Positions 6,001 to 22,259 of a DNA stretch of 64,000 bases are shown here, piece after piece; the first letter of the stretch is position 1; the number at the start of each line of letters is the position of its first letter. The DNA comes from a virus. Under the pieces are notes generated by a model. That model did not search any database and was not told the origin of the DNA. It saw only the letters and a list, made by a program, of their open reading frames with translations. The position numbers and the translations under genes were made by a program. The stretch lies in IMG/VR virus record IMGVR_UViG_3300045988_011398. One strand, written 5' to 3'.

Positions 6001-7027
6001 TTACTTCAAGAAAGTGGTTGCAGAGAATGAGGATATAGCTGACCTTGAGTTTATTAAGAGACTTAGAGTGATAAGGGCAAATGATACAAATCCTGTGGAT
6101 ACTGTAGTATTCAAGAATGTTGGTCAGTTAAGTCCTACTCTAAGAGAAAGATATATGAGAGACTGGGCTTCTCTATTATATATGAGTAACCCAGAAGCTC
6201 AAAAACTTGCTCTTAATCTATTCAGATGCAGCTTCTACAGAAATGGCTTTGCATTTGGTCCTTCCACATTTATTCACTTGGCTCCTGTAGCTGTAAGAAA
6301 TGCAGTTCCAGAGTACATTGAAACACTGAGAAGTCTCCTTACATCTGAGGATGATTACAGTAACTTTGTTGAACAGTATATCTATAATCACCTTGATAAT
6401 AGAAAGCTTGTTCCTGAAGTTCCTGATGATGCCTCAACATCATTCATAGGTGAAGACAATGAAATAAAAGATGAAGTCACATTTGTAATAGATGAAAATG
6501 CCAACTTTGGTGATAAAAAGGTTGTCAAGAAGAGAATAGATACACCTGATGGTCCTGTATATGATTTCTTTGATTTCATTGCAAGAAGAAACAGAGGTAA
6601 CTATGTTTATTACAGATTGACTACAGACAGAGTTGATGAGTCTAATGTGGCAGTCTATAGGAGAATTGAGCCACTTGGATTTAGAAACAGTTTCATTGAA
6701 TATGAATATGGCAAGGAAGCAAGTGAGATGACTTCTGTAATTGAGAAGAATAGTAAGGACTATAATCCTAATCCTAATGTTGATTATGAGGCATTTGCTT
6801 CATTTGAAACTCCTCAAATGACAGAAGAAGACTTGGCTTATTCTGAGATATATAGAGAGGCATTCAGTGAGGATGCTTTAAGACAGGCTTATGGAGACAT
6901 TTATGGTGCTCCCCTTGAAATGCCACAAGGTTCTGAAAATGATGTGACATCTATTCAGCCTAATATGGATTACAAGGATGAGAATGGTGATAATATTTGT
7001 GGTGCAACAACTTTATATAGCTTATAA
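29..7027 (+). CDS. crAss-type giant virion RNA polymerase (DxDxD class); N-terminus may lie upstream of the window
   Basis: 2332-aa uninterrupted ORF. The frame is open from nt 2, so the ATG at 29 may be internal. SGSDFDVDKM (DFDVD = nt 4268-4282) resembles the Mg-binding NADFDGD loop of RNAP beta-prime and the DxDxD of crAss-like virion RNAPs. A second giant ORF is coupled 4 nt downstream. Confidence 0.8.
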   Translation: MLDEALSSSFDTPKVSSIEEQAKVDLDFDPRTRRDRVTLIARFFSNEVDKALQEMNDSINKRMDTVSDEERLQLQKELSSLDRFTVIKKYTPAGLFSRVLDIFQSYINDTEENRVKVELDKINSAKGADKYSDEQKLAAAKKKAAYKEQAYRKVVDNFKPLAEEASTLLVMTEGIRIDPNYIAPKDANLNDDTPEGDSELDEQADDYNKEETFKDGWMTNFRQVSSHESLSQAVRKVIRQVPKLDYRGKYEKDDLGFTRYLDADYVHATFIDKLRDMITSEDMIPLIQELEKNKPWVKQVTKLLQGNETLFSQFYQDFRKDFMPYWIQKKKMMPDGTFKMQTIAINKPEGVYYLLDAWRDNYENGIQLDDDSVYEKNGDINIENAEKGLKWVETLNNKFSNLDTEARLKLLEEDRIWNTILKLLNMIGIDANPSVLKNALTDIKTSDTIKFTDPIMLLLPQLNVIFSGIKKGDIKSETREDGTEKRGDLINTFGSAYNMIASMMANVTEDAIESSVRENDKSYYSHVTPNYLGKLIKQLKNVRGDKKRFEEFINTEFKQYEWFFKDGRWRSDWLEQLVNSEEMRRGLSHKVVLNSDKVDYTNWDDLDYTLALLTEYWGDPEDSRTSVKWAWYHVPILSDSPSAEFIRFRKYVSGVEYDENGNKLTYDDIILDKLTDLVNQEYDRIMLVRARDEELQNGNPNISPIANYDIVRKKDGSIKSIGGAEFKFLPALNSIRYDNGETFLDRLSRLSREGSGAELKDFIRGALREVMDNGFEEAYRDWVRIGLLDELPNGRYKYLPFAGQAQQNSRTAKSLIKAKEILGTTLWTTDMELLLRDYNNNAPVDDRVAANLFQQIRDMVTQKATRGDITKQEADSINRNLVVKNNAKAALREYYWNSKLATSQIIELTTTDLAFYKNVEDFQKRYKEVHAPALRMNTKATYKGERIGRDWERTIYLMDDEITSSVLSDIETVLDERVKRGEMTKTDRDNIVNKFKAVNVADAQAYRSLSSYRAILGMSGQWTDEMEQAYNNFKNGTWNIADFNIIWQTKKPYVYTQVNNMSGVQGHTGIKTPVQHKNSEFLLLAMHELIAGPLGKSSKLRAINEFMEENNIDVVQFESTTKVGKQGIIDLNQVNDFKQVKEVLKSATTQDGVENPNVVHKVSYEDYGIQTATPEHAIDAVQLVGTQIRKLITADIAPDAIIEVDGKKMTKQEWLDLYNAINTENILQAFRDVDDIFKDPKKVEEILLEEIRGNQRYGIDMMRACTLNENGQFNIPLFDPVQSQRVQTLLNSIIKSRITKQKIRGGALIQVSDYGLTDELHVVFEGEGENKRIKYLECYMPAYSREFYEPLMKEGTHELDINKLPEDLRKLIGYRVPTEDKYSMAPLYIKGFLPQQNGSAIMLPAEITTLSGSDFDVDKMYIMLPEFKVEKFDFRRAKQDFKGEQRILDELASLFREGSLMDDFANAPVEFKEWFRENKEKYRLATPKIRKVKYDFNKAPQENSLEARNNLMIDMMWGVLTNADTASKILNPGGFDYQKKAARIVSILSSSYESDLRRDLNIPNGPVITKLVSMDLEELDKLAERTKRKLDPISPRTQVQLHQQNMTGAKLIGIYANHNANHALMQHTELGLDVENGSFVLNGKRLTSLHDIMNRDKEFISKNNAGFLAASVDNVKDPVLAGINQNTFTADASMLLSRLGYNPVEIGLLMAQPIIMDITQAYFRESREGKGKDTVIDEILVEYKKKAAMMEEVTYDNYKNNDFLIEDLANNILIAKEMAGIISAHQTSDYSKVEFYKKQVAVGFLFKRIMRTADSLGQLVQATRSDTQGGAAGPTIADTKLKIQKVQDFLKDMEENDKFPLVGADVISDSISLNDDIDNIREQLLASKLPFLQAFYTLGLKQSERMLSKYFPQFTESFDEVVDVLRNMTKTGRLNVKTMNSIYNDLLAYIMSKTDFFGAEPDWSSVDENGNPTKMITSADKRRDFINNFPTYFKKVVAENEDIADLEFIKRLRVIRANDTNPVDTVVFKNVGQLSPTLRERYMRDWASLLYMSNPEAQKLALNLFRCSFYRNGFAFGPSTFIHLAPVAVRNAVPEYIETLRSLLTSEDDYSNFVEQYIYNHLDNRKLVPEVPDDASTSFIGEDNEIKDEVTFVIDENANFGDKKVVKKRIDTPDGPVYDFFDFIARRNRGNYVYYRLTTDRVDESNVAVYRRIEPLGFRNSFIEYEYGKEASEMTSVIEKNSKDYNPNPNVDYEAFASFETPQMTEEDLAYSEIYREAFSEDALRQAYGDIYGAPLEMPQGSENDVTSIQPNMDYKDENGDNICGATTLYSL

Positions 7028-7030
7028 GAT

Positions 7031-10000
7031 ATGGCAAGAAATTGTGCAATTATCCCTCAAGTAAGAAACAATAAAGGTCAGGTAGTAGACAGCAAGCTCT
7101 TTAAGGGCTTGCTTGCCTACACTGGCAATAATAGGTCAGAAGCTACCAGACTTTATTTGATTACTAAGAGTAGTGAGTTTATTAAGAATTGGAATCCAAG
7201 GCTAACTCTTGATGAAAACAATGAACCTACATTGAGAAGTCTTCTACAAAAGACCAATCTTAGTGATGTTATTCCTGAGTCAAAAGTACTTGAAAGACTC
7301 AATAGGGAAATAGGGTACTATAAGAGGGGAATGGATAGACCTGCTCTTTGGGTAAATAATGATGAGAACTATCAGAAGTTACTACAGAAGGCAATCTCAT
7401 TCAATCAAACCTCAGATTTCAGGGATGACTATGTAGCTAAGATTATTAAGATTCAGGACACTGAATCTCCAAGAATCTTCATAGGAGTAAAGGTTGAGAA
7501 GAGAAACAGGCTTAACTCAATTGATGCTGACAAAATGGCATATAATGCCAATCTTAATAGTAGATTAAGAGACATTTTGGCAGCTAATGGCATTGCAATA
7601 GGTGCTCTTACAGACCTTGAGAAGAGAATGGGAATCAATGGTGTAACTGACTTTGATGTGGCAAGAACTGCTGCTAATGGAATGATTGAGATGATTAGAT
7701 TGGCTAATGGTATTGAAGGAGAAAAAGCTCTTCCTGAAGAGTTTGCCCACTTTGCTATTGAGGCAATGGGAGAGTCCCCCCTTATCAATAGATTGATTAA
7801 TAATCTCAGTTCAAGTGGTCTTATAGGTGAAATACTTGGTGATGAGTATGAGACCTACAATACTCTCTACAAAGGTGATACTGCAAAGTTAGCTAAAGAA
7901 GCAGCAGGTAAATTACTTGCAAAGCACTTATTGAAGTCAGAGCCTATAGGACAGAAACCCTACAAGAATTTATTAGAGAGAGTAATCTCAGCTATTAAAT
8001 CCTTCTTCAAGACAATGAATGCCAACCAGATACAAAAGGCTATGTATGAAGTAGACAAAGACTTTGGCAGGCTGGCAAGAGATATTCTCAATGGTAGAAT
8101 GGATGAAGAGATAAATGTGGGGAACATTAATTCCTCTGGCTTATTCTATCAGACCAATGAAAGAGTTCAAAGGGATAGAAGGCTATTGCAGGACATCATG
8201 AATAATGAGTTGAAGAGGCTCAAGATTTATGAGAAGAGAAATCCTAATAGCCAATTCAGTGCCAACCAAAGACTTCTTATTGACAGGCTTGAGCTTGAAT
8301 TAGCTGACAATAATGAAGTTGAGGGAATCTATGCTTTCCTTGATAATGCTCTTGAAGAATTACAGAAGGTAAGCAGTAGGCTTGAGGTGCTAAGAAACAC
8401 TCCAGCCACTAATGCAAATGAAAGGGCTTCTGTATTGAGAGATGTGAGAAATTACATGTACTCATATAAGAATATCATTGAGGATATAAGAAAGGCATTG
8501 GTAGATGAGGAAAGATACACTGATAATAGATATGGTCAGAGAGTCAGAGTAGCATTGGATAATGCTTCTATTTTGATTGGAGACCTATTTGTTAAGTACA
8601 ATGATGTTTCTATGCCTCTATTTGTGGACTTCATTAAGCCATTTGTAGGAGAAAATATCATGATACCTTTTGGTAAGTTCAAGGGTAAAGTGATTAAGGC
8701 TGAGGATTTAGTGAAGATGGCTGATGAGGATATTTCCTTCTTTGACAGATGGCTTGATAGTATGGCAGATTCTTCTGACTATATGTTGAAAGTAATGGAC
8801 CAAGCTGTCAAGAAGAGTAAGGAACAGGCAAGATTGAGGACTATTGATGTAATGAAACAATTACAGGCTGCCACTATTAAACTTGAAAAGGCTGGTATTA
8901 AGAATACTGACTGGATGTTTGAGAGGGACAGCAAGGGTAATTTAAGTGGTAATTACATCTCTGAAATCAATCAAGCCTTGTTCAAGGAGAAAGTAAGGGA
9001 AATGTTCAAATCTCTTAATGAGAAGTATGGAAAGAACCCTGTTGGTGAAAATGCTGAGAAGTATAAGAAAGAAAGACAGGCTTGGTTTGATGCCAATATG
9101 GAAATAGTCAATGGTAAGAAAGTACCTAAGATGTCAATCTATGGTAATAAGCAATACCAAAGACTGAATGCAGCTCAGAAAGAGTATTATGATACAGTGA
9201 TGAACATTAAGTCCCAGTTGGATTCTTATTTGCCTGAGAAGTACACTACACTTACTAATGCTGTCAAGATAAGAAAGGACTTGCTTGAGAGGGTCAAGTC
9301 ATCTGATGGTGTGAGGTCAGGGGCAAAGCAGATATGGGAAAGTATCAAGGATGAGTTTATTAGAAGGACTGATGATGTGGACTTTGGAGACAGAGCCACA
9401 GTGAAGGACTTTGAAGGCAATGAGGTACAGACTCTTCCTATATACTTTACTAAACTGAAAGAGGGAGAAAGTGCAAATGACCTGTCTACTGACATTGTAA
9501 GTACTCTCACAGCCTATGCTGCAATGGCTAATGACTTTGATGAAATGAACAAGGTTATTGATGTGCTTGAGTTAGGCAGAGACTTACTAAGAGAAAGGCA
9601 AGTAATTCAAACTCAAGGAGGTAAGCCACTTGTAGAGAAGTTTAAGGCAGTAGGTAGAAAGGTTGAGAGTAAATTAACAAAAGAAGGAGAAGCTACAAGA
9701 TTTGTCCAAAGACTGAATGACTTCTTTGAAATGCAAGTATATGGAAGATACATGGCAGATGAAGGTACATTTGGTAAGACAAATATTGATAAGGGTAAAG
9801 TCGCTAACTTTGTAAATAGAGTTACTTCTATGAACAACTTAGCACTCAATGTTCTTTCAGGTATTTCCAATATAGCTACTGGTAAAGTGATGATGAGAAT
9901 TGAGTCATTTGCTGGTGAGTTCTTCAATGAGAAGAATACAATTACTGCTGATAGGATATATGGTCAATCTCTTCCTGCATATCTTGCTGAAATAGGTAAT

Positions 10001-11068
10001 AGAGTAAAGACAAGTAAACTTGCTCTATGGGATGAATTGTTCAATGTGATGCAAGAGTATGAGCAGGATGTCAGAGAAGTGAACTTTGATAGGAAGACTT
10101 GGTTCAGTAGAATGTTTGGCGCATCTACATTATTCTTTATGAACAATGCGGGTGAACATTGGATGCAGAACAGAACCTCTTTAGCCTTAGCTGATGCCTA
10201 TAAGATGAAAGCACCTAATGGTAAGATTGTCAGTCTATGGGATGCTATGGAAGTAGTTCCTATTGATAAGAATAATAAGAAAGCTGGTGCTAAACTTCAA
10301 TTGAAGCAAGGTTATACAAAGGCTGATGGCTCTGCATTTACACAGGATGACATTATCAAGTTCAGTAGAAGAAGTGCAGCAATCAATCAGAGAATGCACG
10401 GTATTTACAATAAGGCTGATAGGTCAGCAGTACAAAGATTGGCTATTGGTAGAATGGGTATGATGTTCAGAAAATGGATTAAACCATCTCTGAATAGAAG
10501 ATTCAAGTCAGCTACTTATAACTATGATTTGGATGCTTGGACTGAAGGTTATTATAGAACAAGTGGTAGATTCCTGTTACAACTTGCAAGAGATTTGAGA
10601 GAAACTCAATTTAATCTTGCTGCAAGGTGGAAAGAGCTTACCCCTACTGAGAAGGCTAACATAAGAAGAGCATTGACTGAGACAGGTCACTTCTTGGCAG
10701 TAATGGCTATTATTGGTCTCATTGAGTGGTCTGATGATAAGGATAGACCTTGGTTAGTGAGGATGGCTGAATATCAAGCAAGAAGATTGTACACTGAATT
10801 AGGTGCTATGATACCCGGCAAACCTATGATTTCAGAAGGTTTGAAGATTATCAAATCACCTGCTGCTGGTGTGAATACAATTGAGAATATGCTTGATTTA
10901 ACTAAACTGCTTAATCCTTGGAACTACATGGATGAATTACAGTCTGGTAGATATGAAGGACACAGTACTGCATACAAGTCATTCTTTGAATCTCCTATAA
11001 TTCCTATGAACAGGACTATTTATAGAGGATTGCATCCTGAGACTGGTATTCCATTCTTCAAGCAATAA
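7031..11068 (+). CDS. large uncharacterised protein of the RNAP / ejected-protein block
   Basis: 1345-aa ORF with its ATG 4 nt after the RNAP stop (TAAGATATG) on the same strand. It ends at the bidirectional terminator. No catalytic motif recognised by eye. Confidence 0.6.
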   Translation: MARNCAIIPQVRNNKGQVVDSKLFKGLLAYTGNNRSEATRLYLITKSSEFIKNWNPRLTLDENNEPTLRSLLQKTNLSDVIPESKVLERLNREIGYYKRGMDRPALWVNNDENYQKLLQKAISFNQTSDFRDDYVAKIIKIQDTESPRIFIGVKVEKRNRLNSIDADKMAYNANLNSRLRDILAANGIAIGALTDLEKRMGINGVTDFDVARTAANGMIEMIRLANGIEGEKALPEEFAHFAIEAMGESPLINRLINNLSSSGLIGEILGDEYETYNTLYKGDTAKLAKEAAGKLLAKHLLKSEPIGQKPYKNLLERVISAIKSFFKTMNANQIQKAMYEVDKDFGRLARDILNGRMDEEINVGNINSSGLFYQTNERVQRDRRLLQDIMNNELKRLKIYEKRNPNSQFSANQRLLIDRLELELADNNEVEGIYAFLDNALEELQKVSSRLEVLRNTPATNANERASVLRDVRNYMYSYKNIIEDIRKALVDEERYTDNRYGQRVRVALDNASILIGDLFVKYNDVSMPLFVDFIKPFVGENIMIPFGKFKGKVIKAEDLVKMADEDISFFDRWLDSMADSSDYMLKVMDQAVKKSKEQARLRTIDVMKQLQAATIKLEKAGIKNTDWMFERDSKGNLSGNYISEINQALFKEKVREMFKSLNEKYGKNPVGENAEKYKKERQAWFDANMEIVNGKKVPKMSIYGNKQYQRLNAAQKEYYDTVMNIKSQLDSYLPEKYTTLTNAVKIRKDLLERVKSSDGVRSGAKQIWESIKDEFIRRTDDVDFGDRATVKDFEGNEVQTLPIYFTKLKEGESANDLSTDIVSTLTAYAAMANDFDEMNKVIDVLELGRDLLRERQVIQTQGGKPLVEKFKAVGRKVESKLTKEGEATRFVQRLNDFFEMQVYGRYMADEGTFGKTNIDKGKVANFVNRVTSMNNLALNVLSGISNIATGKVMMRIESFAGEFFNEKNTITADRIYGQSLPAYLAEIGNRVKTSKLALWDELFNVMQEYEQDVREVNFDRKTWFSRMFGASTLFFMNNAGEHWMQNRTSLALADAYKMKAPNGKIVSLWDAMEVVPIDKNNKKAGAKLQLKQGYTKADGSAFTQDDIIKFSRRSAAINQRMHGIYNKADRSAVQRLAIGRMGMMFRKWIKPSLNRRFKSATYNYDLDAWTEGYYRTSGRFLLQLARDLRETQFNLAARWKELTPTEKANIRRALTETGHFLAVMAIIGLIEWSDDKDRPWLVRMAEYQARRLYTELGAMIPGKPMISEGLKIIKSPAAGVNTIENMLDLTKLLNPWNYMDELQSGRYEGHSTAYKSFFESPIIPMNRTIYRGLHPETGIPFFKQ

Positions 11069-11083
11069 GATAAGGATAAAAAG

Positions 11084-11115
11084 AAAGGGAAGTAGATTAA
11101 GTTCTACTTCCCTTT
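11084..11115. terminator. bidirectional intrinsic terminator at the convergent junction
   Basis: Perfect 13-bp stem aaagggaagtaga / tctacttcccttt with loop ttaagt. It is flanked by an A-run upstream and a T-run downstream, and sits between the stops at 11068 (+) and 11151 (-). Confidence 0.85.
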
Positions 11116-11150
11116 TTCTTTCTCCTTTATAAAAAATTTCACCCTACTGA

Positions 11151-14100
11151 TTAAAGAGCTATACATTTAACTGCTTGGTCTCTCTCTTGTTGTGAGACTG
11201 CATCAAACTTCTCTTGTGTCCATCCCTTATTCAATAGGGATTCTTGTATCTCAGCATCTAATGACTCAAATGATGTAGTATCTTGCTTTTTTGATTCTCT
11301 CATTTGACTTAGTGAAGGTACTTTATAATTACTTGATGAGTACTTTCCTTCATTGATATTTCTGTAATAATCAATCAAGTGGGGTCTCATGTTATTCCAA
11401 TTAGTAACCTTAGCAAATAAGTCTTTGAAGAAATCAAGAATCTTTCTACCAATACCTCTATTCCCTCTGGTCATTACATACTCTCTGAATCCTTCTGCCA
11501 TATCCTCTTCAAGAGAGGCATCATCTTTATTACCATACATTTCCTTAGCCTCAGCCAATAATGCTTGTCTCTCATTATTGTCAAGAAGAAGTTGAAATAC
11601 TGCATGGAAGGCTTCATGGTAAGTAGTACCCTCAGCAGCTATATCAGATAAAGTAATTATGCCATTATTGAATTGTCCCCAAGCCAATGCTCCTTGATTT
11701 CCAACTCTAATAAGACCCTTTATTACTCTTACCCTATCATTATCAGATAATTGAGGAAGGACTTTCTTTATCCAAGCAAGTTCCTTTTCTTGATTCCAAG
11801 TACCTCTTGTCTCATCATCTACCCTTCTCAAACTACCCAAATCCAAGTCATCCTCAAATTCATCATCATTCTCATTTACTGCTTGTTCTGCTTGTGCAGC
11901 CTTAGCTGCCCCAGACTCAGTAGGAGTAGATAATATAGTGGCAGGAGTCTCAGTTTTAGGTGCTTCTACTACAGGAGCAGATGAAGGGTCAAATATGAGA
12001 GTCTTCTCATTTGACATATCTACCACTCTTTGAGGATTACCATTAAGCATCTTCTTGATAGTATCCTTAGCCTGCTGCTCAGTCATGGTCATTGGGTCAT
12101 TCTTGATAAGAGTAATTGAATTACCATTAGGGAATACTGCCATGTATGAATTACTTGCAACATGGGCTTCTTCACCTTGTCTACCAAATCCCTTAGTTAT
12201 AGTAGGTATCTTAGCCATATACACCTCAACACCATTCACTTTACCAATAGGAGTTAGATAACTCTTGTGTAATTTACCATCTCTTACAAAATAACCTACC
12301 TTACTATCTTCAAGACTATATTCAGGAAGCACATCATTAACAGGGTCTTGTGTTTCAAGAGCACTATTAAAGACTGGTACTGTTGAGTTAGTAGGAGTAG
12401 GTTCACTTGCCTTTACAGCACCTACTAATGGTACATTAACAGCAGGATTATAGGTTATCATTATACCCTTCTCCTTTGTTACTCCATCAACAACATCCTT
12501 ATTATAGTTAAGAACAAATGGTAGAACAGCAAGTGTAGTGATAGGAGTATGATATTGAGACTCAAACAGATTCTTATATGCAGACAATTGTAGAGTATAG
12601 TAATCCTTAGCACTCATTCTTTGAGTAGCTGAAGGGCTGGTGAAGTAATTCACTCTATGACCATATCTGTCTGTGAAATCATAGAAGCTATATCTGCTTG
12701 TCTTTACATCATATATCCTGAAGTTTCCATCTGCATCTACTGAAAGAATATCAACCTCACCTGCAACTCTTGTCCCATCAGCATACTTCTGGAATAGTAC
12801 AATGTTATTGGTTAGGAATCTTTCACCTCTTGCCTCAATGTTAGACCTGATTTCTGTAAGTGAGGCAATCAAATCTGTGAAAGCTTTCTCACTCATATTA
12901 TCAGGCTTTACAGGAGTATCATTTGATGTAAAGAAGTTTCTAATCACACTATCCACAGCAGTACCAGCATTTAAGGCTCTTTGTGAGTTAGTGCCAGACA
13001 TACTGTCTCTTATGATGTTTACAATAGTATCTCTACTTCTTGCATCAATCTTACCACTGAATGCACTTAAATCAACCTTCCAATGATTACCTAAGTACTT
13101 CAAGTAGTTATTGTACTGAGTAACATTATCTGCCAATTGAGACAATCTTACTCTTATATCTTTAAGAGCATCAGTTTGCTTCTTTGATTCAATCCAATTA
13201 CTTCCTAATCTGCTGTGTACTCTTTCATACTTATGGTACTGACCATCTTCCTCAAGTATATAATAGAACTCACCATCAGTTCTTGTCTTATCTACTTTCT
13301 TCTGATTCTCAGCTATCTGAGCTATGACTTTCTTACTGTCTCCTACAGTTCTTTCTCTACCAGCAATCTTATCCTTAACCTCTTGAGCTTCTTTACCTGT
13401 CAAGTATTTCTGAGTTCCTCTATCCAATACCTGACCACTTGGTAACAGGATTTTATTATTCCATATCAAAGAACCATTAGTAGCATCACCAAAGTTAGCA
13501 CTTGCCCAAGCTAAATCACTGATTAACTGAGCATTCTTAGGATATACCCTTTGATTGTTACTACCATATATAACACCAGTAGTCAAATCTACTCCATAAG
13601 TAGCACCATCAACAACTACCTTAGTACCTGTAATAACACCCTCAGTCCCACCTACAGGAGTTTCTATCTTCCTTGTAGTATCTGGAGTTACAGATGCAGG
13701 GTTTATAGCCTGATGTAAATTACCTTCCACATCAAAGTAGTCAGTAGTAAACCAGCTACTTATCACTCTTGCATCAGAGATATTTGATGTAAGTACATTA
13801 GAATTGATAAGTACATTGTTATATCCACCTCTATTCAACATACCAAGATTCACCTGAATAGGTAGATTGAAGTCAAGAAGGATTTCACTTATCTCCTTTG
13901 ATACATCCTCAATACTCTTTGAGGCAGGCTCTGTTTGTACCTCTTCATTTCCTGTAATAGAGAATAGAGTGTTTTGGTCCCACTTCTCAGTTAAGAATAC
14001 TGTCTTTACAGTCTCCTTTCTTATTCTCTTGCCATCTTTCTCCTCATATATCTCATTACCTTGAGCATCTCTTTGCACCTTAGTAAATCTAATACCATTA

Positions 14101-17100
14101 CCTGAGTCAGATGTAAACCAGTCAATGTGCAAATCTCCAGTATAAAGATTGGTTGCAAGAGACTTGACTGCATTATTCAAATCATCCTCACTCAATGAAT
14201 TAGCAAGTGCATCAATGGACTCTTGTATATTCTTATATACCTGAGTACTTTGTACTTCAACATCCTCAGGATTAAACTCAGTTTTGTTGAAGTGCTTTAC
14301 TCTTACAGCAGCAGGTGAATACTTACCAGCAGCATTAGGTATAAGAAGATACATTCTACCCTCCTTTTGAGCCATATCTACTGGCTTGATAATAAGACTA
14401 TCATCCAATCTACCATTAGTAGCCAATGTACCATTCTTGATTATACCAAAGATAGGTGCTCTGCCCTCTCCTGATACATTAGGTATATTAGCCAAGCTTC
14501 TTTCCTCTGTGCTATAAGGTATTCTACCTACCATTACTTGTGACACTCTTGTAGTAGGAGTAGCAATAAATCTCTTACTCTTATCACTTCTCTGTGCAAA
14601 CTCAGCTTTTATCTTCTCTTCAAGACCAGCCAGACCCTCATATCTATCTACTGAATAGTCAGATTCATCAAGGCTACCTACAATCTGGTTATTTCTTCTA
14701 TCTACAATAAAGATTGTATGGTCATTGAACTCAGGGTCAATCATAAATCCAAGCTCATCACCTGCCTTCAGATTACCTTCATTCACATAAGTAAATGCAC
14801 CATTATCTCTTAGATAGTTATATAACTCATCAAAGTTTACACCTTTCTCTCTTTCAGCAGCTACTACATTGAATGGTCTAAAATCTCCTTCCTTACTTGC
14901 CTGAATATGCAACTCAGGTATTGAAGGTCTGTAGTAGGGTCTTCTACTCTTTTGCTTGCTGTCAAGTGATTGTGGGGTTTCAACTCTATTATTAGTTTCC
15001 TTATTCTCATCCTTTACTTGAGTTGCAGTTACATTACCTACAGGAGGTTCATAAGTAACCACAGGAAGACCCTCAGTGCTAACTGGAGGAATAGTAGAAG
15101 TACCACTATCACCTGTAGTATCTTTTGTAGGAGCCTTGGGATTTGGCTTGCCCTTTTCTCTTAGTGTCCTATAATCTTGTGAGAATCTATCCTTAAATCT
15201 ATTCTCATTGTTGATTTGATTCATTGCTCTAAGAAGTGCATACTGAGCTTCTTGGAATTTAACAGCATTCTCCTCTGGTGTTAAATTATCATCATACAGA
15301 GCATCTGCATTATCAACATATATAGAGTTAGGATTTGCTATCTCATTTAGATTAGAGGAGTTCTCAAATTGGTCTTGAAGTAGTTTAAGAGCATCTGCCT
15401 TGACAGCAGGACTTTCATCAAGAGAATTAATTGCTCTTTGCACATCTGTGTTGTAGGCATTTACTTCCCTATAATTCTTAGCCATCTCATTACCTTCATC
15501 TTCAAGAGATTTAAGTGTCTCTTCTCTTGTAGCAGCATCCTCTTCCTCATTAAGAGCCTGTCTGAACTCAGATAAGTTAGTGGCTGAGAGTAGTCTGCTC
15601 TTCAGATTATCAGACTTTTTCTTAGCTTCTTCCTTAGCAATGTTCTCAGTAGATGAGACTATATCTTCTTGGAGCTTAGCAGGATTCTCAAGATATTCCT
15701 TTAGCTTAGTATTATATTTACCAGTAGCATCTACTAATTTCACAATATCATCAATCTTCTCATTGAATGCTTGTGCATCATCAGCAGTTACTCCACTAAG
15801 AGGACTCTCTATTACTGACTTGATTCCCTCTACTAACTTGGGGTCACTTGACAAGAGATAAGCAAAAGTCTTATCATCAAGACCTCTTACAGTCTCAAGA
15901 ATAGACATATTCTTCCTTATCTGTCTCTCATTCTTATCAGCAGAATTATACAAATCAGACAATCCTGCATGAGCCTTACCTTCCTCAGTCTTGATTGAAT
16001 TGTACATATCAGCAAGCTGAGACATACTTCCAAGCACTGTACCAATAGTAGGCTTTACTTCACTTGAAAGTTGATTAGCCCTATCTTGCCAATTACCAAT
16101 TTGAGACTTCAACCAAGTCAATTCCTCAAGTTGCTCATCACTTAATTGCTGACCAGTTCTTACATCAATATCATCCTTAATCTTAGTATAGTTAGTGATA
16201 GTATTAAGCATTTCATCTCTTGTCTGAGTCAGCTTATCTATCATTTCCTGCTTTCCCTCAGGAGTACTGTACATAGGATTACCATTCTTATCAATGAATG
16301 GACCAACCTTAGCTTCCTTACCATTTTCATCAGTTATAGTAGAAGTAGTATTTTCTACTATTGATGCAAGGTTCTCATCAGAAGTGTCATAGGCAGAATT
16401 AATGAGAGTAGTTAAATCTTCAAGTTTACCTGCATTATCAAACATTGCAATGTCAGAAATCAACTGAGCATGTTCAGCATTCTTGAACTCAAACTCATCA
16501 TTGTTTTCTACAGCTTGGTTCATATCATTCTGATACTTATTATGTCTGATAAGACCTTGATAGTAATTTATGAACTCAGGAGATTGAACCCTCTCATTCA
16601 TATAATTAGCTATCTCATTCTCTCTATTCATCTTGTCTCTATACTCTCTGAACTCACCAATAGTTCCACCTTCAAGAGTAACAGGAGATTGTAATCTACC
16701 TTCACTACTTCTTATCCCTCTGAACCTTGGCATACCAAGAGCACCAGTAAGAGTACCAATAAAGAACTCCTCCCATGATGAACCATCATTCACTGTCTCA
16801 TTAATACCTTGAGCAAAGGATTTCATCCAACTCAGTGTCTCCTGCTCAGCCTGTGAGTCTATCTTGGCTTTGTAGAAGTTATTTACATCATCCTCATAGT
16901 AATTACCAAATATTCTACTTGCTGCACCTTGTGAAATTTCCTCAAGACCCTCAGAAAGAGGACTCAAAGTAGCTCTTGCAATTCCCTTACCTGTAGTTCT
17001 TCCTGTAGTATATTCTCCTGCCTTACCAACTATGTTGGTTGCTTTTCTTGCAGTCTTGAAGCCATTGGCATACATTCTACCAAACTGAATAAGGTTAGAT

Positions 17101-18065
17101 GCAGTAAGAATAGGTATATTCATAAGCAGGTCTGCATTACCCATCTTTAGTCTGTCTTCAGTTAATTTACCAAGAGTAGCTTCATAATTGGCATTCTCTT
17201 GTGCAATCATTCTATTGTGCATCTCAGGGCCCAAGTACATACCATCAATAGCTTGAAGTCTTGCAGTATGCTGGTCATCAAGTTGAGTCTTATGTAGATT
17301 AAACCAGTCTGTAGAATTGTTCAATGCCTCTATTCTACCTTCATTCACAGCAGAGACAGTAGCACCTACACTTGATGTTACAATAGCAGGTGCTCTGGAA
17401 GACTTAGCTATAGCACCTATAATCTGAGGCAACTTTGTAGCTTTTAGCCCTGCACCTACAACACCACCACCATAGAATGCACCAACAGTGAAACCTAAGT
17501 TCTTTATGAACTTGTCCCCTAAGAAATTGGCAGTGAATATGTTTTCATACCAAGGTTCATTTCTCTCAGCATCAGTATAATAGTTAGGAAGTGCTTCCTC
17601 AGACCACTCATTAATAGATTGCATTGCTTTGCTAAATGGGTTATCCCATAGGGCAGAACCTCTACCCTCTGCAATAGCTTGTGCTCCACCAAGTACCAAC
17701 CCTAATGTACCATCAAGGAATGTAGTACCTGCAAGAATTACACCCTTAGCCAAACCTGCACCAATCTGTGCATACCAAGGCTGTAATTCTCTTCTTGTAT
17801 TAGCCAAGTTATCAAGTTGTGTAGCTGAGGTAATATCTTCATCAAACATACTGTCATTGACCCCAACAAAGCCTATATCCTGTCTTGGAGTTGCAGTTCT
17901 GTTGATTTCCTGCATTGTACCTCTATAGTCTCTGGCAAGACCAAGAATAGAGGTATCAATATTGATACCCCTTTCTCTTAGTCTATTAATACCATCCAGA
18001 CCTCTCAAACCTCCAGTCCCTTGTGTAGAAGGGTCTTGTATTTGTTGATTATCTGCTGCTGCCAT
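11151..18065 (-). CDS. giant multidomain virion-module protein with RecB-family PD-(D/E)xK nuclease signature and C-terminal HExxH zincin domain
   Basis: 2304 aa with an ATG start. GEVDIL-x12-IYDVKTS-x37-QLSAY (nt 12576-12761) matches GxhD / (D/E)xK / QxxxY. YHEAFHAV (HEAFH = nt 11604-11618) is followed by EEDMAEGFREY. It is the last gene of the minus-strand late block. Confidence 0.65.
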   Translation of the reverse strand: MAAADNQQIQDPSTQGTGGLRGLDGINRLRERGINIDTSILGLARDYRGTMQEINRTATPRQDIGFVGVNDSMFDEDITSATQLDNLANTRRELQPWYAQIGAGLAKGVILAGTTFLDGTLGLVLGGAQAIAEGRGSALWDNPFSKAMQSINEWSEEALPNYYTDAERNEPWYENIFTANFLGDKFIKNLGFTVGAFYGGGVVGAGLKATKLPQIIGAIAKSSRAPAIVTSSVGATVSAVNEGRIEALNNSTDWFNLHKTQLDDQHTARLQAIDGMYLGPEMHNRMIAQENANYEATLGKLTEDRLKMGNADLLMNIPILTASNLIQFGRMYANGFKTARKATNIVGKAGEYTTGRTTGKGIARATLSPLSEGLEEISQGAASRIFGNYYEDDVNNFYKAKIDSQAEQETLSWMKSFAQGINETVNDGSSWEEFFIGTLTGALGMPRFRGIRSSEGRLQSPVTLEGGTIGEFREYRDKMNRENEIANYMNERVQSPEFINYYQGLIRHNKYQNDMNQAVENNDEFEFKNAEHAQLISDIAMFDNAGKLEDLTTLINSAYDTSDENLASIVENTTSTITDENGKEAKVGPFIDKNGNPMYSTPEGKQEMIDKLTQTRDEMLNTITNYTKIKDDIDVRTGQQLSDEQLEELTWLKSQIGNWQDRANQLSSEVKPTIGTVLGSMSQLADMYNSIKTEEGKAHAGLSDLYNSADKNERQIRKNMSILETVRGLDDKTFAYLLSSDPKLVEGIKSVIESPLSGVTADDAQAFNEKIDDIVKLVDATGKYNTKLKEYLENPAKLQEDIVSSTENIAKEEAKKKSDNLKSRLLSATNLSEFRQALNEEEDAATREETLKSLEDEGNEMAKNYREVNAYNTDVQRAINSLDESPAVKADALKLLQDQFENSSNLNEIANPNSIYVDNADALYDDNLTPEENAVKFQEAQYALLRAMNQINNENRFKDRFSQDYRTLREKGKPNPKAPTKDTTGDSGTSTIPPVSTEGLPVVTYEPPVGNVTATQVKDENKETNNRVETPQSLDSKQKSRRPYYRPSIPELHIQASKEGDFRPFNVVAAEREKGVNFDELYNYLRDNGAFTYVNEGNLKAGDELGFMIDPEFNDHTIFIVDRRNNQIVGSLDESDYSVDRYEGLAGLEEKIKAEFAQRSDKSKRFIATPTTRVSQVMVGRIPYSTEERSLANIPNVSGEGRAPIFGIIKNGTLATNGRLDDSLIIKPVDMAQKEGRMYLLIPNAAGKYSPAAVRVKHFNKTEFNPEDVEVQSTQVYKNIQESIDALANSLSEDDLNNAVKSLATNLYTGDLHIDWFTSDSGNGIRFTKVQRDAQGNEIYEEKDGKRIRKETVKTVFLTEKWDQNTLFSITGNEEVQTEPASKSIEDVSKEISEILLDFNLPIQVNLGMLNRGGYNNVLINSNVLTSNISDARVISSWFTTDYFDVEGNLHQAINPASVTPDTTRKIETPVGGTEGVITGTKVVVDGATYGVDLTTGVIYGSNNQRVYPKNAQLISDLAWASANFGDATNGSLIWNNKILLPSGQVLDRGTQKYLTGKEAQEVKDKIAGRERTVGDSKKVIAQIAENQKKVDKTRTDGEFYYILEEDGQYHKYERVHSRLGSNWIESKKQTDALKDIRVRLSQLADNVTQYNNYLKYLGNHWKVDLSAFSGKIDARSRDTIVNIIRDSMSGTNSQRALNAGTAVDSVIRNFFTSNDTPVKPDNMSEKAFTDLIASLTEIRSNIEARGERFLTNNIVLFQKYADGTRVAGEVDILSVDADGNFRIYDVKTSRYSFYDFTDRYGHRVNYFTSPSATQRMSAKDYYTLQLSAYKNLFESQYHTPITTLAVLPFVLNYNKDVVDGVTKEKGIMITYNPAVNVPLVGAVKASEPTPTNSTVPVFNSALETQDPVNDVLPEYSLEDSKVGYFVRDGKLHKSYLTPIGKVNGVEVYMAKIPTITKGFGRQGEEAHVASNSYMAVFPNGNSITLIKNDPMTMTEQQAKDTIKKMLNGNPQRVVDMSNEKTLIFDPSSAPVVEAPKTETPATILSTPTESGAAKAAQAEQAVNENDDEFEDDLDLGSLRRVDDETRGTWNQEKELAWIKKVLPQLSDNDRVRVIKGLIRVGNQGALAWGQFNNGIITLSDIAAEGTTYHEAFHAVFQLLLDNNERQALLAEAKEMYGNKDDASLEEDMAEGFREYVMTRGNRGIGRKILDFFKDLFAKVTNWNNMRPHLIDYYRNINEGKYSSSNYKVPSLSQMRESKKQDTTSFESLDAEIQESLLNKGWTQEKFDAVSQQERDQAVKCIAL

Positions 18066-18067
18066 AT

Positions 18068-19753
18068 TTATTCCTCTTTACTAAATGTATTACTTTGTCT
18101 CTTCTCAAGAGTATTGTACCTCTTATAGAATGCTTCCATAGTAGCATCAATAAGTGTGGTAGCCAACTCATCTTCTCCATTTTCCAAAGCTACTTTAATA
18201 GCCTGCTGTGCTCTACTGAATGTTCTGTTCTGGTCATCAAGCAATTCAGTATCAAGTATTGCTGACCTTGTTTTACCTTTACTATCAGTAGAATTGATAA
18301 TGAATCCCAAATCAGGGTCAAAATCTATATCAGCATCTGATGTGAAGTAATTATTCAAATCTTCAATATCTACCTCATCACCCTTCTTATTATCATCAAG
18401 TTCCCATAGACCAGTGCTATTAGACCTTCTATAATATGACCTTGTATTCTCTTTCAATACCTGAGTTATCAAGTCACTCTGAGTGATATTAGGCTTATAA
18501 GAAAAAGCTCTTACTGCACTACTTCTAATATCATTTTCAAGTTTTTGGGCAAGCTCTCCAAGATTACCTCCTGTCAATACACCGTCTGTTAGGGTATAAC
18601 TTACATTTCCATATCTTTTTGATAACTCAGTTAATTTTTCTCTGTAAGGATAGTATGTTTCCTGCCTTGTAGGTCCTGTGCCAGTGTCTATCCAGAAATT
18701 AGTCATTGGGTCAGGATTTATCAAGTGAGGCTCTCTTACTGTCCTTGTAGATGCTTGGTCAAGTAAAGCTGGATTAGCCAGTACCTCTCTTAATACTTGC
18801 AGGTCAGTATTCATTTGAGTAGTCTTCTTGTCACCATCTACAGTAGTTTTAGGAACAGCTCTATAATAGAGTCTTGCTTTCTCTTCTGCCTCTTTTGCAG
18901 CTCTGGCTCTTGCCTCTTTATTTCTTGCAAGTTGGTCTTGCATTGCATAGTCATAAGCCTTATTAGACTGTATCTGATATTGAGTCTCTCCTACTGCATT
19001 CCATAGTCCTTGTCTTGCATATTCATAAGCTCTATTAAGAGTGGCTTGGTCTCCCCAGCTTGATATATTTGAGCTACCTACTGCATCCTCAACAATACCT
19101 TTTAATACTGAAGAAGCATTAGGGTCATTCTGCAATACCTGAATAATCTCTTCAGGTCTATATCCCTTCTGCATGATAGTTTCAAAGTACTGATTACCAA
19201 GAATAGTTCTCCACTTTCTTGGATTATCTCTCATTTCCTTAGCCAAGTTCTGAGCAGCAGTCCCTACTTGTTTTGCAAGAGTGGCACCTGAATATGATTG
19301 ATATGTAAGTTGAGGATTCTTAATCAAATCATCAAGACTGAGCATAGAGGCATTCCTATCAAACATAAGTGTGTTATCCTGTGCCAACAACTTTCTTTGC
19401 TCATCAATCAATTCCTGTCTTCTCTTATATGCCTGTTCTATAGGGACTATATCACTTGAGTATCTTTGCTTCATTCTCAGCATATTCTGTCTACTTGCAG
19501 GAGTAAGACCCTCTCTTGCTAATTGACCAGCCTGTTCCTCAAGGTCATTTGAATATGTCTTGTACATCTTGTAAGCATAAGGGTCAGTCTGCTCATTAGC
19601 CATTTCATCCCATACATTAGCCTTAGTTGCCAACTCAGCATATTCATTCTCAACTTCCTGATGTGCCAATGTTGCCATTTGTACTGGCTGAAGCATCTCT
19701 GCATAAGAGAAAGGTTTGAATTTACTATTTACTACAATATAATTTGCTGCCAT
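18068..19753 (-). CDS. uncharacterised structural-module protein (561 aa)
   Basis: ATG start, tightly packed between neighbouring late genes (2-nt gaps). No motif recognised. Confidence 0.55.
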   Translation of the reverse strand: MAANYIVVNSKFKPFSYAEMLQPVQMATLAHQEVENEYAELATKANVWDEMANEQTDPYAYKMYKTYSNDLEEQAGQLAREGLTPASRQNMLRMKQRYSSDIVPIEQAYKRRQELIDEQRKLLAQDNTLMFDRNASMLSLDDLIKNPQLTYQSYSGATLAKQVGTAAQNLAKEMRDNPRKWRTILGNQYFETIMQKGYRPEEIIQVLQNDPNASSVLKGIVEDAVGSSNISSWGDQATLNRAYEYARQGLWNAVGETQYQIQSNKAYDYAMQDQLARNKEARARAAKEAEEKARLYYRAVPKTTVDGDKKTTQMNTDLQVLREVLANPALLDQASTRTVREPHLINPDPMTNFWIDTGTGPTRQETYYPYREKLTELSKRYGNVSYTLTDGVLTGGNLGELAQKLENDIRSSAVRAFSYKPNITQSDLITQVLKENTRSYYRRSNSTGLWELDDNKKGDEVDIEDLNNYFTSDADIDFDPDLGFIINSTDSKGKTRSAILDTELLDDQNRTFSRAQQAIKVALENGEDELATTLIDATMEAFYKRYNTLEKRQSNTFSKEE

Positions 19754-19754
19754 A

Positions 19755-22259
19755 TTACTTACCTTTTCTTATAGTTAAATAACCTCCCTTAGCTTTCTTC
19801 TTTCCCTTAGCTTTATTAGCAGCATCTCTTACTACCTTCTTCTCAGCCTCACTCAAATCCTCATAACCATTCTTATAAGTTATTCTACCACTACTGTCAA
19901 TAGAATAGTAGAGTGCAGGATTTGTTTGAATCATATTTCTGCTGAACTCTTCTCTACCTATCTCACCAAGTGAGTCAAACAGATTAGTAAGATTAGCTGC
20001 TCTACCAGCAGAAGACCTTGCATCAGCTTGGTCTCTTAATTGAGCCTGTGTGGTTCTTGCCTGCAATCTCAATTTATCATTTGCCTGATTAGCTATGCTT
20101 GCTTTAAGACCCATTTCAGAATTGAACTGATTAGTTCCTCTATTGAATGTCTCAACCTCTTTTCTTTGATTGAAGTTGTATTCCTCAGCCTGTCTTGCAA
20201 GGTCTCCTAATACATTCTGAGCATTATAGTCTGCTGCCAATAAACCTGCTAATGCAGTAGCTCTGTTACCACCTGATTGATTTACTATTGCTCTTCTTGT
20301 TGCACCTGCTTGTGCATTTAGCTTGTTTATATAATAGTTTCTATCTAATGGTCTGTAAGTTAAATAATTACCAATAGGAGTAAATTCTACATTGGTTAAA
20401 TTGTCCACTGCACTACCTACCAAGTCAGCATTACCATAGTCAGGACTATTAGTCCATTCCAGTGCATCAGTCAATACACCAAGACCTGCTCCTACTGCTG
20501 GGGCATATCTCAACCATGTAAGTCCCCTACCTTGTCTTGAAGAGTTAGTATTTGGGTCTTCTGTGTCAGTATCACTTCCTGCATCACCTGTAATGGCAGA
20601 TGGATTGAATTGAATAGGCTTAATATTTTCATCCATCCATCTCTCAGCAGGAGTTCTTGTATCAACCAAAGAAGGAACTTCAAGATTGAAACTTGCTGTT
20701 CTTTCTTCAGGGGTCATCATACTGTAAGGCTTTTGGAAAGCAGGAAGTTCATAAGTAGGAACAACCCCTTGTCTCTGTAATGTTCTTAACCATCTTTCTT
20801 GTGGAGTATAGAACTGAAGAAGATTAGGTTCATCACCCTCACCATCATACTTTCTGCCTATCTTACCACCATGTGCATACTTATTACCTCCTCTGTTCTC
20901 TTCCATTCTCACTTGTTCCTGAGCTTGTTGCAATCTTGTCATTGCACTCATCAATCCTCTTTTACTGATAGGGTCATTAGGTCTTTCAGAAGATTCTTTA
21001 CTTAACCTCTCTGCTATATCAGCAAATGAGTGGTCTGCATAAGTGGTAGGAAGATTATGTGCTGCAAGTAATCCACCTGTAGCAAATAGTCTATTGCTGA
21101 ATACATAGTTATTGAACTTAACCTCACCTTGCTCAACAAGATTAGGAGTACCATCAGGAGCTACACCCATAGGTACACCTTCCATAGGATTCTCTTCATG
21201 AGTACCACCATTACCTATGATAGTAACCCCATTAGAAAAGTCTCCACCATGCTGACCTATATTAGGAACTGAGGTATATAGATTACCTCCTTCATCATAT
21301 AGATAACCACCAAAAGCATGATGCCACTTTCTTGCATTAGCAGCAAATGTGGCTCTCTTTCTTACAGCAGCACTCTTACTTCTCTTGCCTCTTGCAATAC
21401 ATTCAGATGTGACCTTTCCACCACAGTAGTCAGTGAACTTACCTCTATTAGCCTTCTTGATATGTATCTTACCTCCTTTAGCAAATACAGCAAGCTCTGG
21501 TGTCTCAAATGAGTTGGGCATTGAAGACATCTTATATTTACTCATAGCACTTAATTGTTTGTTATATAAGTCCTCTTTGGCAAGCTCATAATCAATAGCC
21601 CCACTGCCAAAGATATTTATAGGACCTCCATAAGCAGAGAAGTTAGCAAGCATATTAAGGTCATTTTGTGTATCAATATTTCCAGCCTTATCTTCCAATG
21701 CAACCATATTCTTTTCATTAGCTGCATTTATCTGCTTATTGAATTTCTTAGCTTTCTTCTTAGCTTTGCTATTACCACTAATCCAGCCTGCAATAGAACT
21801 ACCCAGACCAACCACACCACCCACAATAGCACCAATAGGTCCACCTACAGAAGCACCTGCTGCTGCACCTGAACCTGCTGCACCAATAGTATTGCCAATT
21901 CTCTGACCAGTGCTTCCTCCTCTAATATCCTTCCAAGATATATTCTCCATTGGGGAAAACATTCCCCATTCACTCATCAGGTCATCATTATTATTGGCTT
22001 GTACTGTGTATGTCTGTGCTTGCTTTATTTCTCCTTCAAGGTCAGAGGTGTCAGCTATTTGGGCATTTTGAATGCCAGCATTTACTATTGTGCCTACTGC
22101 TGAACCTATTCCTCCAATGGTACTTCCTAAATTCTGACCACTGAAAGCACTTTGAGCTGAGGACTTAGCCTGCTGACCCCAAGTCTGCTTAGTGTCTCCA
22201 CCATCTGCAAAGAGATTAAGAGTTCTATTAGACTTTCTTATAATCTTTTTCTTAGCCAT
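19755..22259 (-). CDS. glycine-rich structural/ejected protein candidate (834 aa)
   Basis: ATG start 19 nt downstream of a TTG-N20-TACCTTTG promoter. The N-terminal third has long small-residue tracts (GGIGSAVGTIVNAG, GAAGSGAAAGASVGGPIGAIVGGVVGLGSSIAG) followed by a basic KAKKKAKKF patch. Confidence 0.55.
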   Translation of the reverse strand: MAKKKIIRKSNRTLNLFADGGDTKQTWGQQAKSSAQSAFSGQNLGSTIGGIGSAVGTIVNAGIQNAQIADTSDLEGEIKQAQTYTVQANNNDDLMSEWGMFSPMENISWKDIRGGSTGQRIGNTIGAAGSGAAAGASVGGPIGAIVGGVVGLGSSIAGWISGNSKAKKKAKKFNKQINAANEKNMVALEDKAGNIDTQNDLNMLANFSAYGGPINIFGSGAIDYELAKEDLYNKQLSAMSKYKMSSMPNSFETPELAVFAKGGKIHIKKANRGKFTDYCGGKVTSECIARGKRSKSAAVRKRATFAANARKWHHAFGGYLYDEGGNLYTSVPNIGQHGGDFSNGVTIIGNGGTHEENPMEGVPMGVAPDGTPNLVEQGEVKFNNYVFSNRLFATGGLLAAHNLPTTYADHSFADIAERLSKESSERPNDPISKRGLMSAMTRLQQAQEQVRMEENRGGNKYAHGGKIGRKYDGEGDEPNLLQFYTPQERWLRTLQRQGVVPTYELPAFQKPYSMMTPEERTASFNLEVPSLVDTRTPAERWMDENIKPIQFNPSAITGDAGSDTDTEDPNTNSSRQGRGLTWLRYAPAVGAGLGVLTDALEWTNSPDYGNADLVGSAVDNLTNVEFTPIGNYLTYRPLDRNYYINKLNAQAGATRRAIVNQSGGNRATALAGLLAADYNAQNVLGDLARQAEEYNFNQRKEVETFNRGTNQFNSEMGLKASIANQANDKLRLQARTTQAQLRDQADARSSAGRAANLTNLFDSLGEIGREEFSRNMIQTNPALYYSIDSSGRITYKNGYEDLSEAEKKVVRDAANKAKGKKKAKGGYLTIRKGK

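Follow-up and report, generated by a model that had tools for sequence, protein, structure and literature searches.

A crAss001 gp47 orthologue with a predicted RecB-type nuclease and a probable zincin-like peptidase beside the RNA polymerase genes of a crAss-like phage

Results

A gp47-like gene at the polymerase locus

The 64,000-nt virus stretch IMGVR_UViG_3300045988_011398, here called the window and used for all coordinates, carries a giant minus-strand gene that encodes a protein of 2304 amino acids (aa) and is met head-on by two plus-strand genes of the RNA polymerase (RNAP) locus (Table 1). A preliminary description of this DNA had reported the open reading frame (ORF), its convergence with the RNAP genes, the motifs GEVDIL (aa 1769-1774), IYDVKTS (aa 1784-1790), QLSAY (aa 1826-1830) and HEAFH (aa 2150-2154), and a Glu-rich helix downstream of the last; all of these were recovered exactly in our analysis. 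We consider below what the protein is, how its domains vary among relatives, and what it may do during infection.

Table 1. Features of the gp47-like gene and its neighbourhood in the window.
Feature	Position	Strand	Basis
gp47-like whole gene	11151..18065	-	2304-aa ORF, ATG start; crAss001 gp47 orthologue by tblastn and synteny
N-terminal conserved block (aa 69-239), two Gly-rich hydrophobic segments	17349..17861	-	hydropathy, conservation
Central region (aa 240-1591)	13293..17348	-	no recognisable domain
Predicted PD-(D/E)xK nuclease, RecB/RecE/EXO5 type (aa 1592-1885)	12411..13292	-	PHROG_298, motif invariance, AlphaFold (AF2) model, Foldseek
Linker: small conserved region (aa 1886-2074) and acidic low-complexity spacer	11844..12410	-	conserved in P0048/P0049
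Probable HExxH zincin-like metallopeptidase (aa 2075-2245)	11331..11843	-	H2150, E2151, H2154, E2187/E2191; invariant columns, AF2 model
Conserved C-terminal tail (aa 2265-2304, '...KGWTQEKFDAVSQQERDQAVKCIAL')	11154..11273	-	holds the protein's only Cys, C2301
Hairpin, candidate bidirectional terminator	11082..11117	.	13-15-bp stem, T-runs on both strands
Cargo protein 2	18068-19753	-	Pfam crAss_CARGO2, E = 4.4e-161; upstream, co-oriented
Cargo protein 1	19755-22259	-	Pfam crAss_CARG1, E = 5.4e-50; upstream, co-oriented
Predicted catalytic RNAP	29-7027	+	DFDVD at aa 1414 of the listed ORF; BLASTP to phi14:2 g066, E = 3e-47
RNAP-associated protein (gp49-like)	7031-11068	+	BLASTP to phi14:2 g065, E = 3e-36

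By tblastn, full-length homologues of the protein are found in 36 deposited phage genomes, the closest being that of cr128_1 (Mahlunavirus rarus, Steigviridae; 81% identity). The preliminary description had proposed a comparison with the RNAP-adjacent giant proteins of cultured crAss-like phages; this comparison leads to gp47 of Bacteroides phage crAss001 (AXQ62690.1), which is deposited as a 'putative RNA-polymerase subunit' and aligns at 53.8% identity over 97% of the query (E = 0). The gene order of crAss001, gp44 (muzzle), gp45, gp46 and gp47 with gp49/gp50 convergent, is replicated in the window as muzzle, cargo 1, cargo 2 and the gp47-like gene beside the RNAP genes. The two giant proteins have the nuclease, the peptidase and the tail in common. 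The differences are that crAss001 belongs to another genus-level lineage, that its gp47 has a ∼40-aa insert in the peptidase domain and is only ∼20% identical to the window protein over central aa 601-800, and that a small gene, gp48, lies in its convergent gap but is absent from the window. On sequence and synteny, the window protein is a full-length orthologue of gp47.

In crAss001, gp47 (262.5 kDa) was detected by mass spectrometry (MS) of the virion and placed in the capsid cargo zone, and the cargo is ejected via the tail, partly unfolded, in the authors' model (PMC10172136). The gene is transcribed late, gp49 and gp50 being middle genes (PMC8375218), and by analogy the window gene would be a late gene as well. 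The earlier proposal that the protein is packaged and ejected thus draws support from an orthologue detected in the virion, and delivery of the window protein into the host with the DNA would follow from the same MS data and ejection model.

Two predicted enzymatic domains in the C-terminal third

The nuclease domain displays the complete RecB motif set: an acidic residue on the first core helix (D1705), GxhD (G1769/D1772), the D1786/K1788 pair, and Q1826/Y1830. For comparison we used divergent copies from IAS virus, cr106_1, DAC15 and cr124_1 together with those from a profile search. Across 34 non-redundant sequences, down to 21% identity, the six predicted catalytic residues (D1705, D1772, D1786, K1788, Q1826 and Y1830) are invariant in 33-34, and G1701, R1709, G1769 and T1789 are likewise invariant or nearly so. 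Nowhere is the protein better conserved than in aa 1701-1800, which are 82% identical to crAss001. The domain matches PHROG_298 'exonuclease' (E = 2.7e-8), and precomputed matches to Pfam PDDEXK_1 (PF12705) are present in many relatives at 21-32% identity. When the profile is searched against the PDB, the RecB-type nuclease domains of AdnAB rank first, at a marginal E = 0.05 and with the alignment lying exactly on motifs II-III.

The predicted structure points the same way. The AF2 model has a mean per-residue confidence (pLDDT) of 88.9 and a predicted template-modelling (TM) score (pTM) of 0.79, and its top Foldseek matches in the PDB all belong to one clade: EXO5, Cas4 SSO0001, RecE, AdnAB, AddAB and ACE1 (prob 0.93-1.0, E from 9e-5 to 4e-2), with human EXO5 at E = 9.4e-5 and RecE at a root-mean-square deviation of 5.2 Å and a TM-score of 0.47 by target. 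A nuclease domain with a RecB/RecE-type PD-(D/E)xK fold is therefore well supported by motif invariance, family matches and fold search, as the preliminary description had suggested. The Cas4 half of its family label had to be dropped: the only Cys among the 2304 aa is C2301, which lies outside the domain, and the four cysteines of an Fe-S cluster are all missing, so that the domain is RecB/RecE-like, not Cas4. RecE, RecB/AddAB/AdnAB, EXO5 and Cas4 share its motifs (D on helix 1, GxxD, DxK, QxxxY) and fold, whereas Cas4 and EXO5 have the Fe-S cluster cysteines that it lacks; AddB has them too. The RecB-family enzymes also differ in serving repair or CRISPR adaptation, while the window domain sits in a 2304-aa virion protein and includes a helical insert. 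This insert, of ∼75 aa (aa ∼1621-1695, window 12981-13205), separates the motif-I helix from the first strands; the crAss001-like lineage and cr124_1 have it, and P0043, P0048 and P0049 do not.

For the HExxH domain we aligned copies from Suoliviridae (cr118_1, cr113_1, cr55_1, cr50_1, cr4_1, cr56_1 and Bohxovirus) and Dulem virus 41, which are 20-50% identical to the window protein. In an alignment of 10 sequences, Y2149, H2150, E2151, H2154, E2187, A2190, E2191, F2193 and R2194 are invariant, defining the motifs G-x-x-YHEA[FW]H and EE-x-[LMF]-AE-x-FR. With 21 sequences, Y2149, H2150, E2151, H2154, E2187, A2190 and F2193 remain invariant and E2191 and R2194 are no longer fully so. Over both alignments, then, Y2149, H2150, E2151, H2154, E2187 and F2193 are unchanged at identities of 19-69%, and the Glu-rich helix is represented by E2187 and A2190. 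The preliminary description had stated that motifs not conserved in homologues would overturn its two domain assignments; the catalytic residues proved invariant for the nuclease as for the peptidase (H2150, E2151, H2154 and E2187).

The AF2 model of the peptidase has a pLDDT of 79.5 overall and >90 over the core. An N-terminal helix is followed by a five-strand sheet, the HExxH helix and, two helices later, a Glu-bearing helix; HExxH and the downstream Glu fall on model helices 73-86 and 108-126. In broad terms this predicted order agrees with how the zincin-like peptidase (MPTase) domain has been defined, variable inserts being allowed between the two active-site helices (PMC5512222). In the BFVD database, the structural neighbours that come after the crAss-like orthologues are multi-domain giants from other tailed phages, named 'RelA/SpoT', 'Large polyvalent protein associated domain' and 'DNA methylase' (E from 2e-4 to 9e-3, prob 1.0), and weaker matches include IrrE-like and M48 peptidases. 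Comparison with the PDB gives weak Foldseek matches that include PprI/IrrE, MATCAP, the Bacteroides putative metallopeptidase 4l7a and an M32 carboxypeptidase, and the HExxH profile searched against PDB sequences returns only spurious helical matches plus YME1 (E = 1.2). The domain is unmatched by the Pfam polyvalent-protein peptidase family at E≤10. Its core has no tblastn match among plasmids, and hence no sequence-level link to the ArdC-type polyvalent proteins of plasmids. Of the earlier assignment as a zincin, the invariant HExxH...E, the predicted zincin-like topology and the polyvalent structural neighbours stand; a significant match to a solved zincin or a Pfam peptidase is lacking, and for this reason a zincin-like peptidase is probable on the model, not proven.

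These alignments also bear on the idea that both domains are decayed relics, retained for structure or packing and devoid of catalysis. It is true that the activity of both domains is only predicted and that no known enzyme matches the peptidase significantly. But the catalytic residues of both are invariant across lineages at 20-25% identity, and conservation within the protein peaks in the nuclease core, so we regard decay as very improbable.

A conserved body with an exchangeable effector cassette

An exhaustive search of public data with the HExxH profile yielded 3872 representative clusters with E≤1e-3, 594 of them with E≤1e-30, and nearly all the best matches are proteins of 1800-6600 aa. 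These clusters, together with the full-length homologues in 36 phage genomes, mean that the 11151-18065 ORF is not a product of chance. We counted architectures in 124 full-length representatives. The nuclease is present in 55 of them, always upstream of the peptidase. The chain extends beyond the peptidase by 0-20 residues in 38 members, 21-150 in 22, 151-500 in 36, 501-1500 in 25 and over 1500 in 3, and two of these three longest members (P0208 and P0211) run on into a DFDxD polymerase. Among 16 members with long inserts, 11 have an ART-PolyVal ADP-ribosyltransferase (ART) after the peptidase (best E = 1.3e-22), one has FtsK-gamma and one HATPase_c. ART-PolyVal also occurs in close homologues. 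The window protein is itself the variant with nuclease and peptidase and no ART. In addition, gp47 of DAC15 and cr106_1 and the proteins P0048-P0050 have the nuclease without the peptidase. Judged by these sequences, the design of the family is a conserved, crassvirus-specific body of ∼1500 aa, a variable effector cassette and a conserved tail: the ART inserts and domain losses among relatives indicate a polyvalent cargo protein whose cassette can be swapped.

With two unrelated predicted enzymatic domains in one phage chain, the window protein, whose functions are predictions, looks like an ordinary member of the phage 'polyvalent protein' class. The proteins described under that name by Iyer, Burroughs, Anand, de Souza and Aravind in 2017 are likewise giant chains of unrelated enzymatic domains; they are delivered with the DNA, as the window protein would be, and in them a zincin-like MPTase forms a hub and nuclease, ART, FtsK-gamma and ATPase modules are swapped beside it (PMC5512222). 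The window protein differs in that most of its chain, aa 1-1590, is not an array of effectors but a conserved module specific to crassviruses. The 2017 paper contains no mention of crAss-like phages; the roles put forward in the preliminary description, attacking the DNA or defence proteins of the host or processing cargo, are ones that it had already proposed for polyvalent proteins (PMC5512222). Both domain types have previously been noted in crAss-like giant proteins (PMC7886860; bioRxiv 10.1101/2020.03.07.982082), an account by Yutin et al. is taken up again in a 2023 review, and the virion location of gp47 is published too. The domain calls made here were largely anticipated.

In four Suoliviridae phages, cr118_1, cr113_1, cr55_1 and cr50_1 (L003-L006), the same slot is filled by a single chain of 4300-4900 aa in which a gp47-like body with HExxH (aa ∼1665-2000) is fused to a DFDxD polymerase (aa ∼3150-3445). 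The deposited names of these chains, 'exonuclease V', 'DprA-like', 'DNA helicase' and 'nuclear pore complex protein-like', each fit at most one small module. The fusion gene of cr113_1 has 73 in-frame TAG codons, a case of stop-codon recoding.

Such fusions raise an obvious question: Is the gp47-like protein a true accessory subunit of the virion RNAP? The role of its nuclease fold would then be to recognise DNA ends or promoters or to handle the template, that of the peptidase to switch on the polymerase once ejected, and there would be no host-directed weapon. The deposited annotation as a putative RNA-polymerase subunit agrees with this, as do the Suoliviridae chains, which join a gp47-like part including HExxH to the polymerase, and the two representatives of 6300-6600 aa that are likewise fused. 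Several observations speak against it. The gp47-like protein has no polymerase motif. Its counterpart g067 in Cellulophaga phage phi14:2 lacks both domains and other orthologues lack one, which means that neither domain is essential for transcription. ART-PolyVal, FtsK-gamma and HATPase modules can also occupy the cassette, a trait typical of conflict effectors, and invariant catalytic residues favour cleavage over mere binding. We therefore consider a polymerase subunit unlikely, and the deposited name 'RNA-polymerase subunit' misleading.

Conserved ends of the chain

The hydrophobic, Gly-rich stretches that the preliminary description had noticed in the N-terminal 250 aa span aa 98-134 and 186-235; averaged over 19 aa, Kyte-Doolittle hydropathy peaks there at 1.52. 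Here aa 101-200 are 71% identical to crAss001 gp47, and aa 69-239 are the sole stretch that can be aligned with phi14:2 g067 (BLASTP E = 3e-8), a virion protein confirmed by MS. This block is a candidate membrane-active or ejection module. The central region that follows has no match in Pfam, PHROG, NCBIfam or PDB sequences (aa 240-1591), and is alpha-helical in crAss001 gp47 according to AlphaFold (PMC10172136). The whole protein gives nothing relevant in a phmmer search of PDB sequences and no family in NCBIfam. Between nuclease and peptidase lies a small conserved region, 'GYFVRDGKLHKSYLTPIGKVNGVEVYMAKIP...YMAVFPNGNSITLI', which has no family match and is kept in relatives that lack the peptidase; aa 1901-2000 are 66% identical to crAss001.

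At the other end, the ∼40-aa tail is present regardless of nuclease, peptidase or ART domains, with the consensus KGWT-x-E-x-F-x-S-[IV]-SQEERD-x-A-[IV]-x-C-[IVL]-[AG]-[FL]. Possibly the tail serves as a signal for packaging or for interaction.

The position of the tail helps to weigh a reading in which the two domains act in the producing cell, at assembly, the peptidase trimming cargo and the nuclease processing genome ends or clearing host DNA late in infection. Late expression in crAss001 (PMC8375218) is consistent with such a role, and there are precedents: such trimming has been proposed for DdrB of phage P1, a protein that undergoes processing ahead of packaging and in which a C-terminal zincin-like peptidase was identified, and the C-terminal region of the N4 protein, with its HExxH, is needed for encapsidation (PMC5512222). 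However, gp47 of full-length size (262.5 kDa) is among the virion proteins of crAss001 (PMC10172136), and the conserved tail lies downstream of the cassette in 120 of the 124 members, which suggests that the whole chain is packaged, effectors included. Separate PDDEXK nucleases, moreover, already exist in the structural and replication blocks of crAss-like phages (PMC7886860). An assembly role is, in our estimate, distinctly unlikely.

The tail has a second peculiarity: the gp47 family is nearly free of Cys (median 0.58 per 1000 aa), and 120 of its 124 full-length members have a Cys 1-5 residues from the C-terminus. We also looked at the termini of the other giants, using loci L017-L083 and L085-L152 and, for the gp49 N-terminus, a search from a three-sequence alignment. 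A single Cys, at residue 3-5, is all that the gp49-type proteins contain in 67/67 viral-contig loci, spread over 12 distinct N-terminal variants. In each of the 20 readable loci the RNAP has a Cys at residue 3-5, and the RNAPs have a second one 1-8 residues before the C-terminus. In the window, Cys5 of the gp49-like protein (7031-7045) and a Cys 8 residues from the end of the RNAP (7004-7006) fit this pattern. Two fusion proteins, of 6320 and 6581 aa, have a single Cys in the whole chain, at its C-terminal end.

In cargo proteins otherwise almost devoid of Cys, this pattern suggests head-to-tail linkage. It is conceivable, if doubtful, that disulfides or a shared metal site at the terminal cysteines hold the three cargo giants together as a 'virtual polyprotein'; the order would tentatively be gp47 C-terminus (C2301) to RNAP N-terminus, and RNAP C-terminus to gp49-type N-terminus. 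The crAss001 virion does contain inter-subunit disulfides in other places (PMC10172136), and our literature search found no report of disulfides in its cargo proteins. The terminal-Cys observation may be new. If the linkage is real, separate proteins would mimic the single Suoliviridae chain of 4300-6600 aa, ejection would proceed in order, as beads on a string, with release by reduction in the host cytoplasm, and in lineages with a covalent fusion, release would instead fall to the HExxH peptidase close to the junction.

Polymerase genes and their counterparts in other phages

The D[FY]DxD motif is absent from the gp47-like protein. As a candidate for the catalytic RNAP it was rejected, the motif (DFDVD) being found instead in the 29-7027 gene, which matches g066, the characterised RNAP of phi14:2; on this sequence criterion the gp47-like protein is not the catalytic subunit. 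In phi14:2 the genes run muzzle g071, g070, g069, g068, g067, g066, g065, an order that makes g067 the positional counterpart of gp47, with g066 corresponding to the window RNAP and g065 to the 7031-11068 gene. The virion presence of g067 is recorded in its annotation, based on MS/MS. It shares the N-terminal Gly-rich block and the terminal Cys with the window protein and differs in having neither nuclease nor peptidase; a match of 6.5 bits to the nuclease hidden Markov model was discarded, all catalytic residues being absent.

A 'zincin-like protease domain' has been reported by Drobysheva et al. in 'gp65 and its orthologs' (bioRxiv 10.1101/2020.03.07.982082). Indeed, g065 of phi14:2 (L015 40997-45262) has an HExxH at aa 245, in an N-terminal part that the gp49 proteins of Bacteroides phages lack, and the HExxH profile of the gp47 family does not detect it. 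By these matches, the published 'zincin-like' domain of phi14:2 gp65 should be counted with the gp49 family and not with gp47. Identification of the window protein with the zincin-bearing gp65 orthologue of the literature was accordingly rejected, g065 matching 7031-11068 instead.

A related discrepancy concerns crAss001 itself (L001 21312-32602), where DFDxD is found at aa 1483 of gp50 and not in gp49. Two published statements, that gp49 is the predicted catalytic subunit (PMC8375218) and that the solved RNAP structure is of a gp49 homologue (PMC10172136), conflict with this position of the motif. The present analysis clarifies which proteins of phi14:2 and crAss001 correspond.

The virion RNAP (vRNAP) of phage N4, gp50, offers a looser likeness: its C1 domain is a conserved HExxH region, near RNAP function, in an ejected giant protein (PMC13434306; PMC5512222). 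N4 differs in that its polymerase is T7-like and part of the same chain, whereas the polymerase of the window is separate and QDE-1-like.

In the window, the RNAP gene is truncated by the left edge, its frame being open from nt 2, so the listed ATG at 29 is internal. Its relatives have alternative N-terminal modules before the shared part, for example the SLOG/DprA-like segment 'GGQTGIDEAG' in L124, and this variety suggests that the RNAP may carry swappable domains as well. The 82-nt gap between the convergent genes contains 3 terminator-like sites where 0.4 are expected, and the same stem of the hairpin is read on both strands. It is likely, from this arrangement, that the hairpin is a bidirectional terminator between the presumed late gp47-like gene and the presumed middle gp49-like gene. 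The sign of the GC skew flips at ∼11 kb, coinciding with the switch of coding strand.

Discussion

We assign a probability of roughly 60% to the following interpretation: the gp47-like protein is a polyvalent cargo protein, orthologous to crAss001 gp47, that is packaged in the virion, ejected, and armed with a nuclease and a zincin-like peptidase. According to this model, the protein would be synthesised late and loaded into the cargo zone of the capsid, the C-terminal tail with its lone Cys perhaps acting as a packaging or interaction signal. At infection it would be extruded through the tail of the particle with its N-terminus leading, and the Gly-rich hydrophobic N-terminal block may engage the envelope or the channel. 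The C-terminal effector cassette would then act in the host cytoplasm at the onset of infection: the nuclease, presumably Mg-dependent, could cut or resect DNA of the host, a plasmid, a competitor or the ends of the phage's own genome, and the peptidase could cleave cargo proteins, in self-processing or activation, or proteins of the host.

A number of observations weigh against this interpretation. For all members of the family alike, activity, substrate, ejection and processing are predictions. The window protein itself scores 17.9 bits against PF12705, below the cut-off of 22, and the TM-scores of the nuclease matches are low by query length (0.22-0.37), partly because of the ∼75-aa helical insert. 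The peptidase model has no significant Foldseek match in the PDB (best E = 0.38), and a Pfam search of 21 HExxH members at E≤10 gave no peptidase family save in one member (Peptidase_M41, E = 0.19). When the domain is aligned with aa 2100-2460 of the N4 vRNAP by hhalign, a beta-hairpin and the HExxH helix coincide, but the match is not significant (probability 3.7%). The N4 vRNAP is reported to be packaged unprocessed (PMC5512222), which means that a processing role for the peptidase is not a given. Finally, the N-terminal segments are moderately hydrophobic, their maximum of 1.52 lying under the usual threshold for a transmembrane segment.

Among the viruses of the human gut, crAss-like phages are the most abundant. 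The analysis provides two concrete predicted active sites, one in the nuclease (D1772/K1788) and one in the peptidase (E2151), in a family whose lineages fill the cassette with nuclease, peptidase and/or ADP-ribosyltransferase. The terminal-Cys pattern, if real, would bear on the ordered passage of several proteins of ∼150-280 kDa through a narrow tail at ejection. Together, these features make the gp47 family a natural place to seek host-takeover or anti-defence activities directed against Bacteroides.

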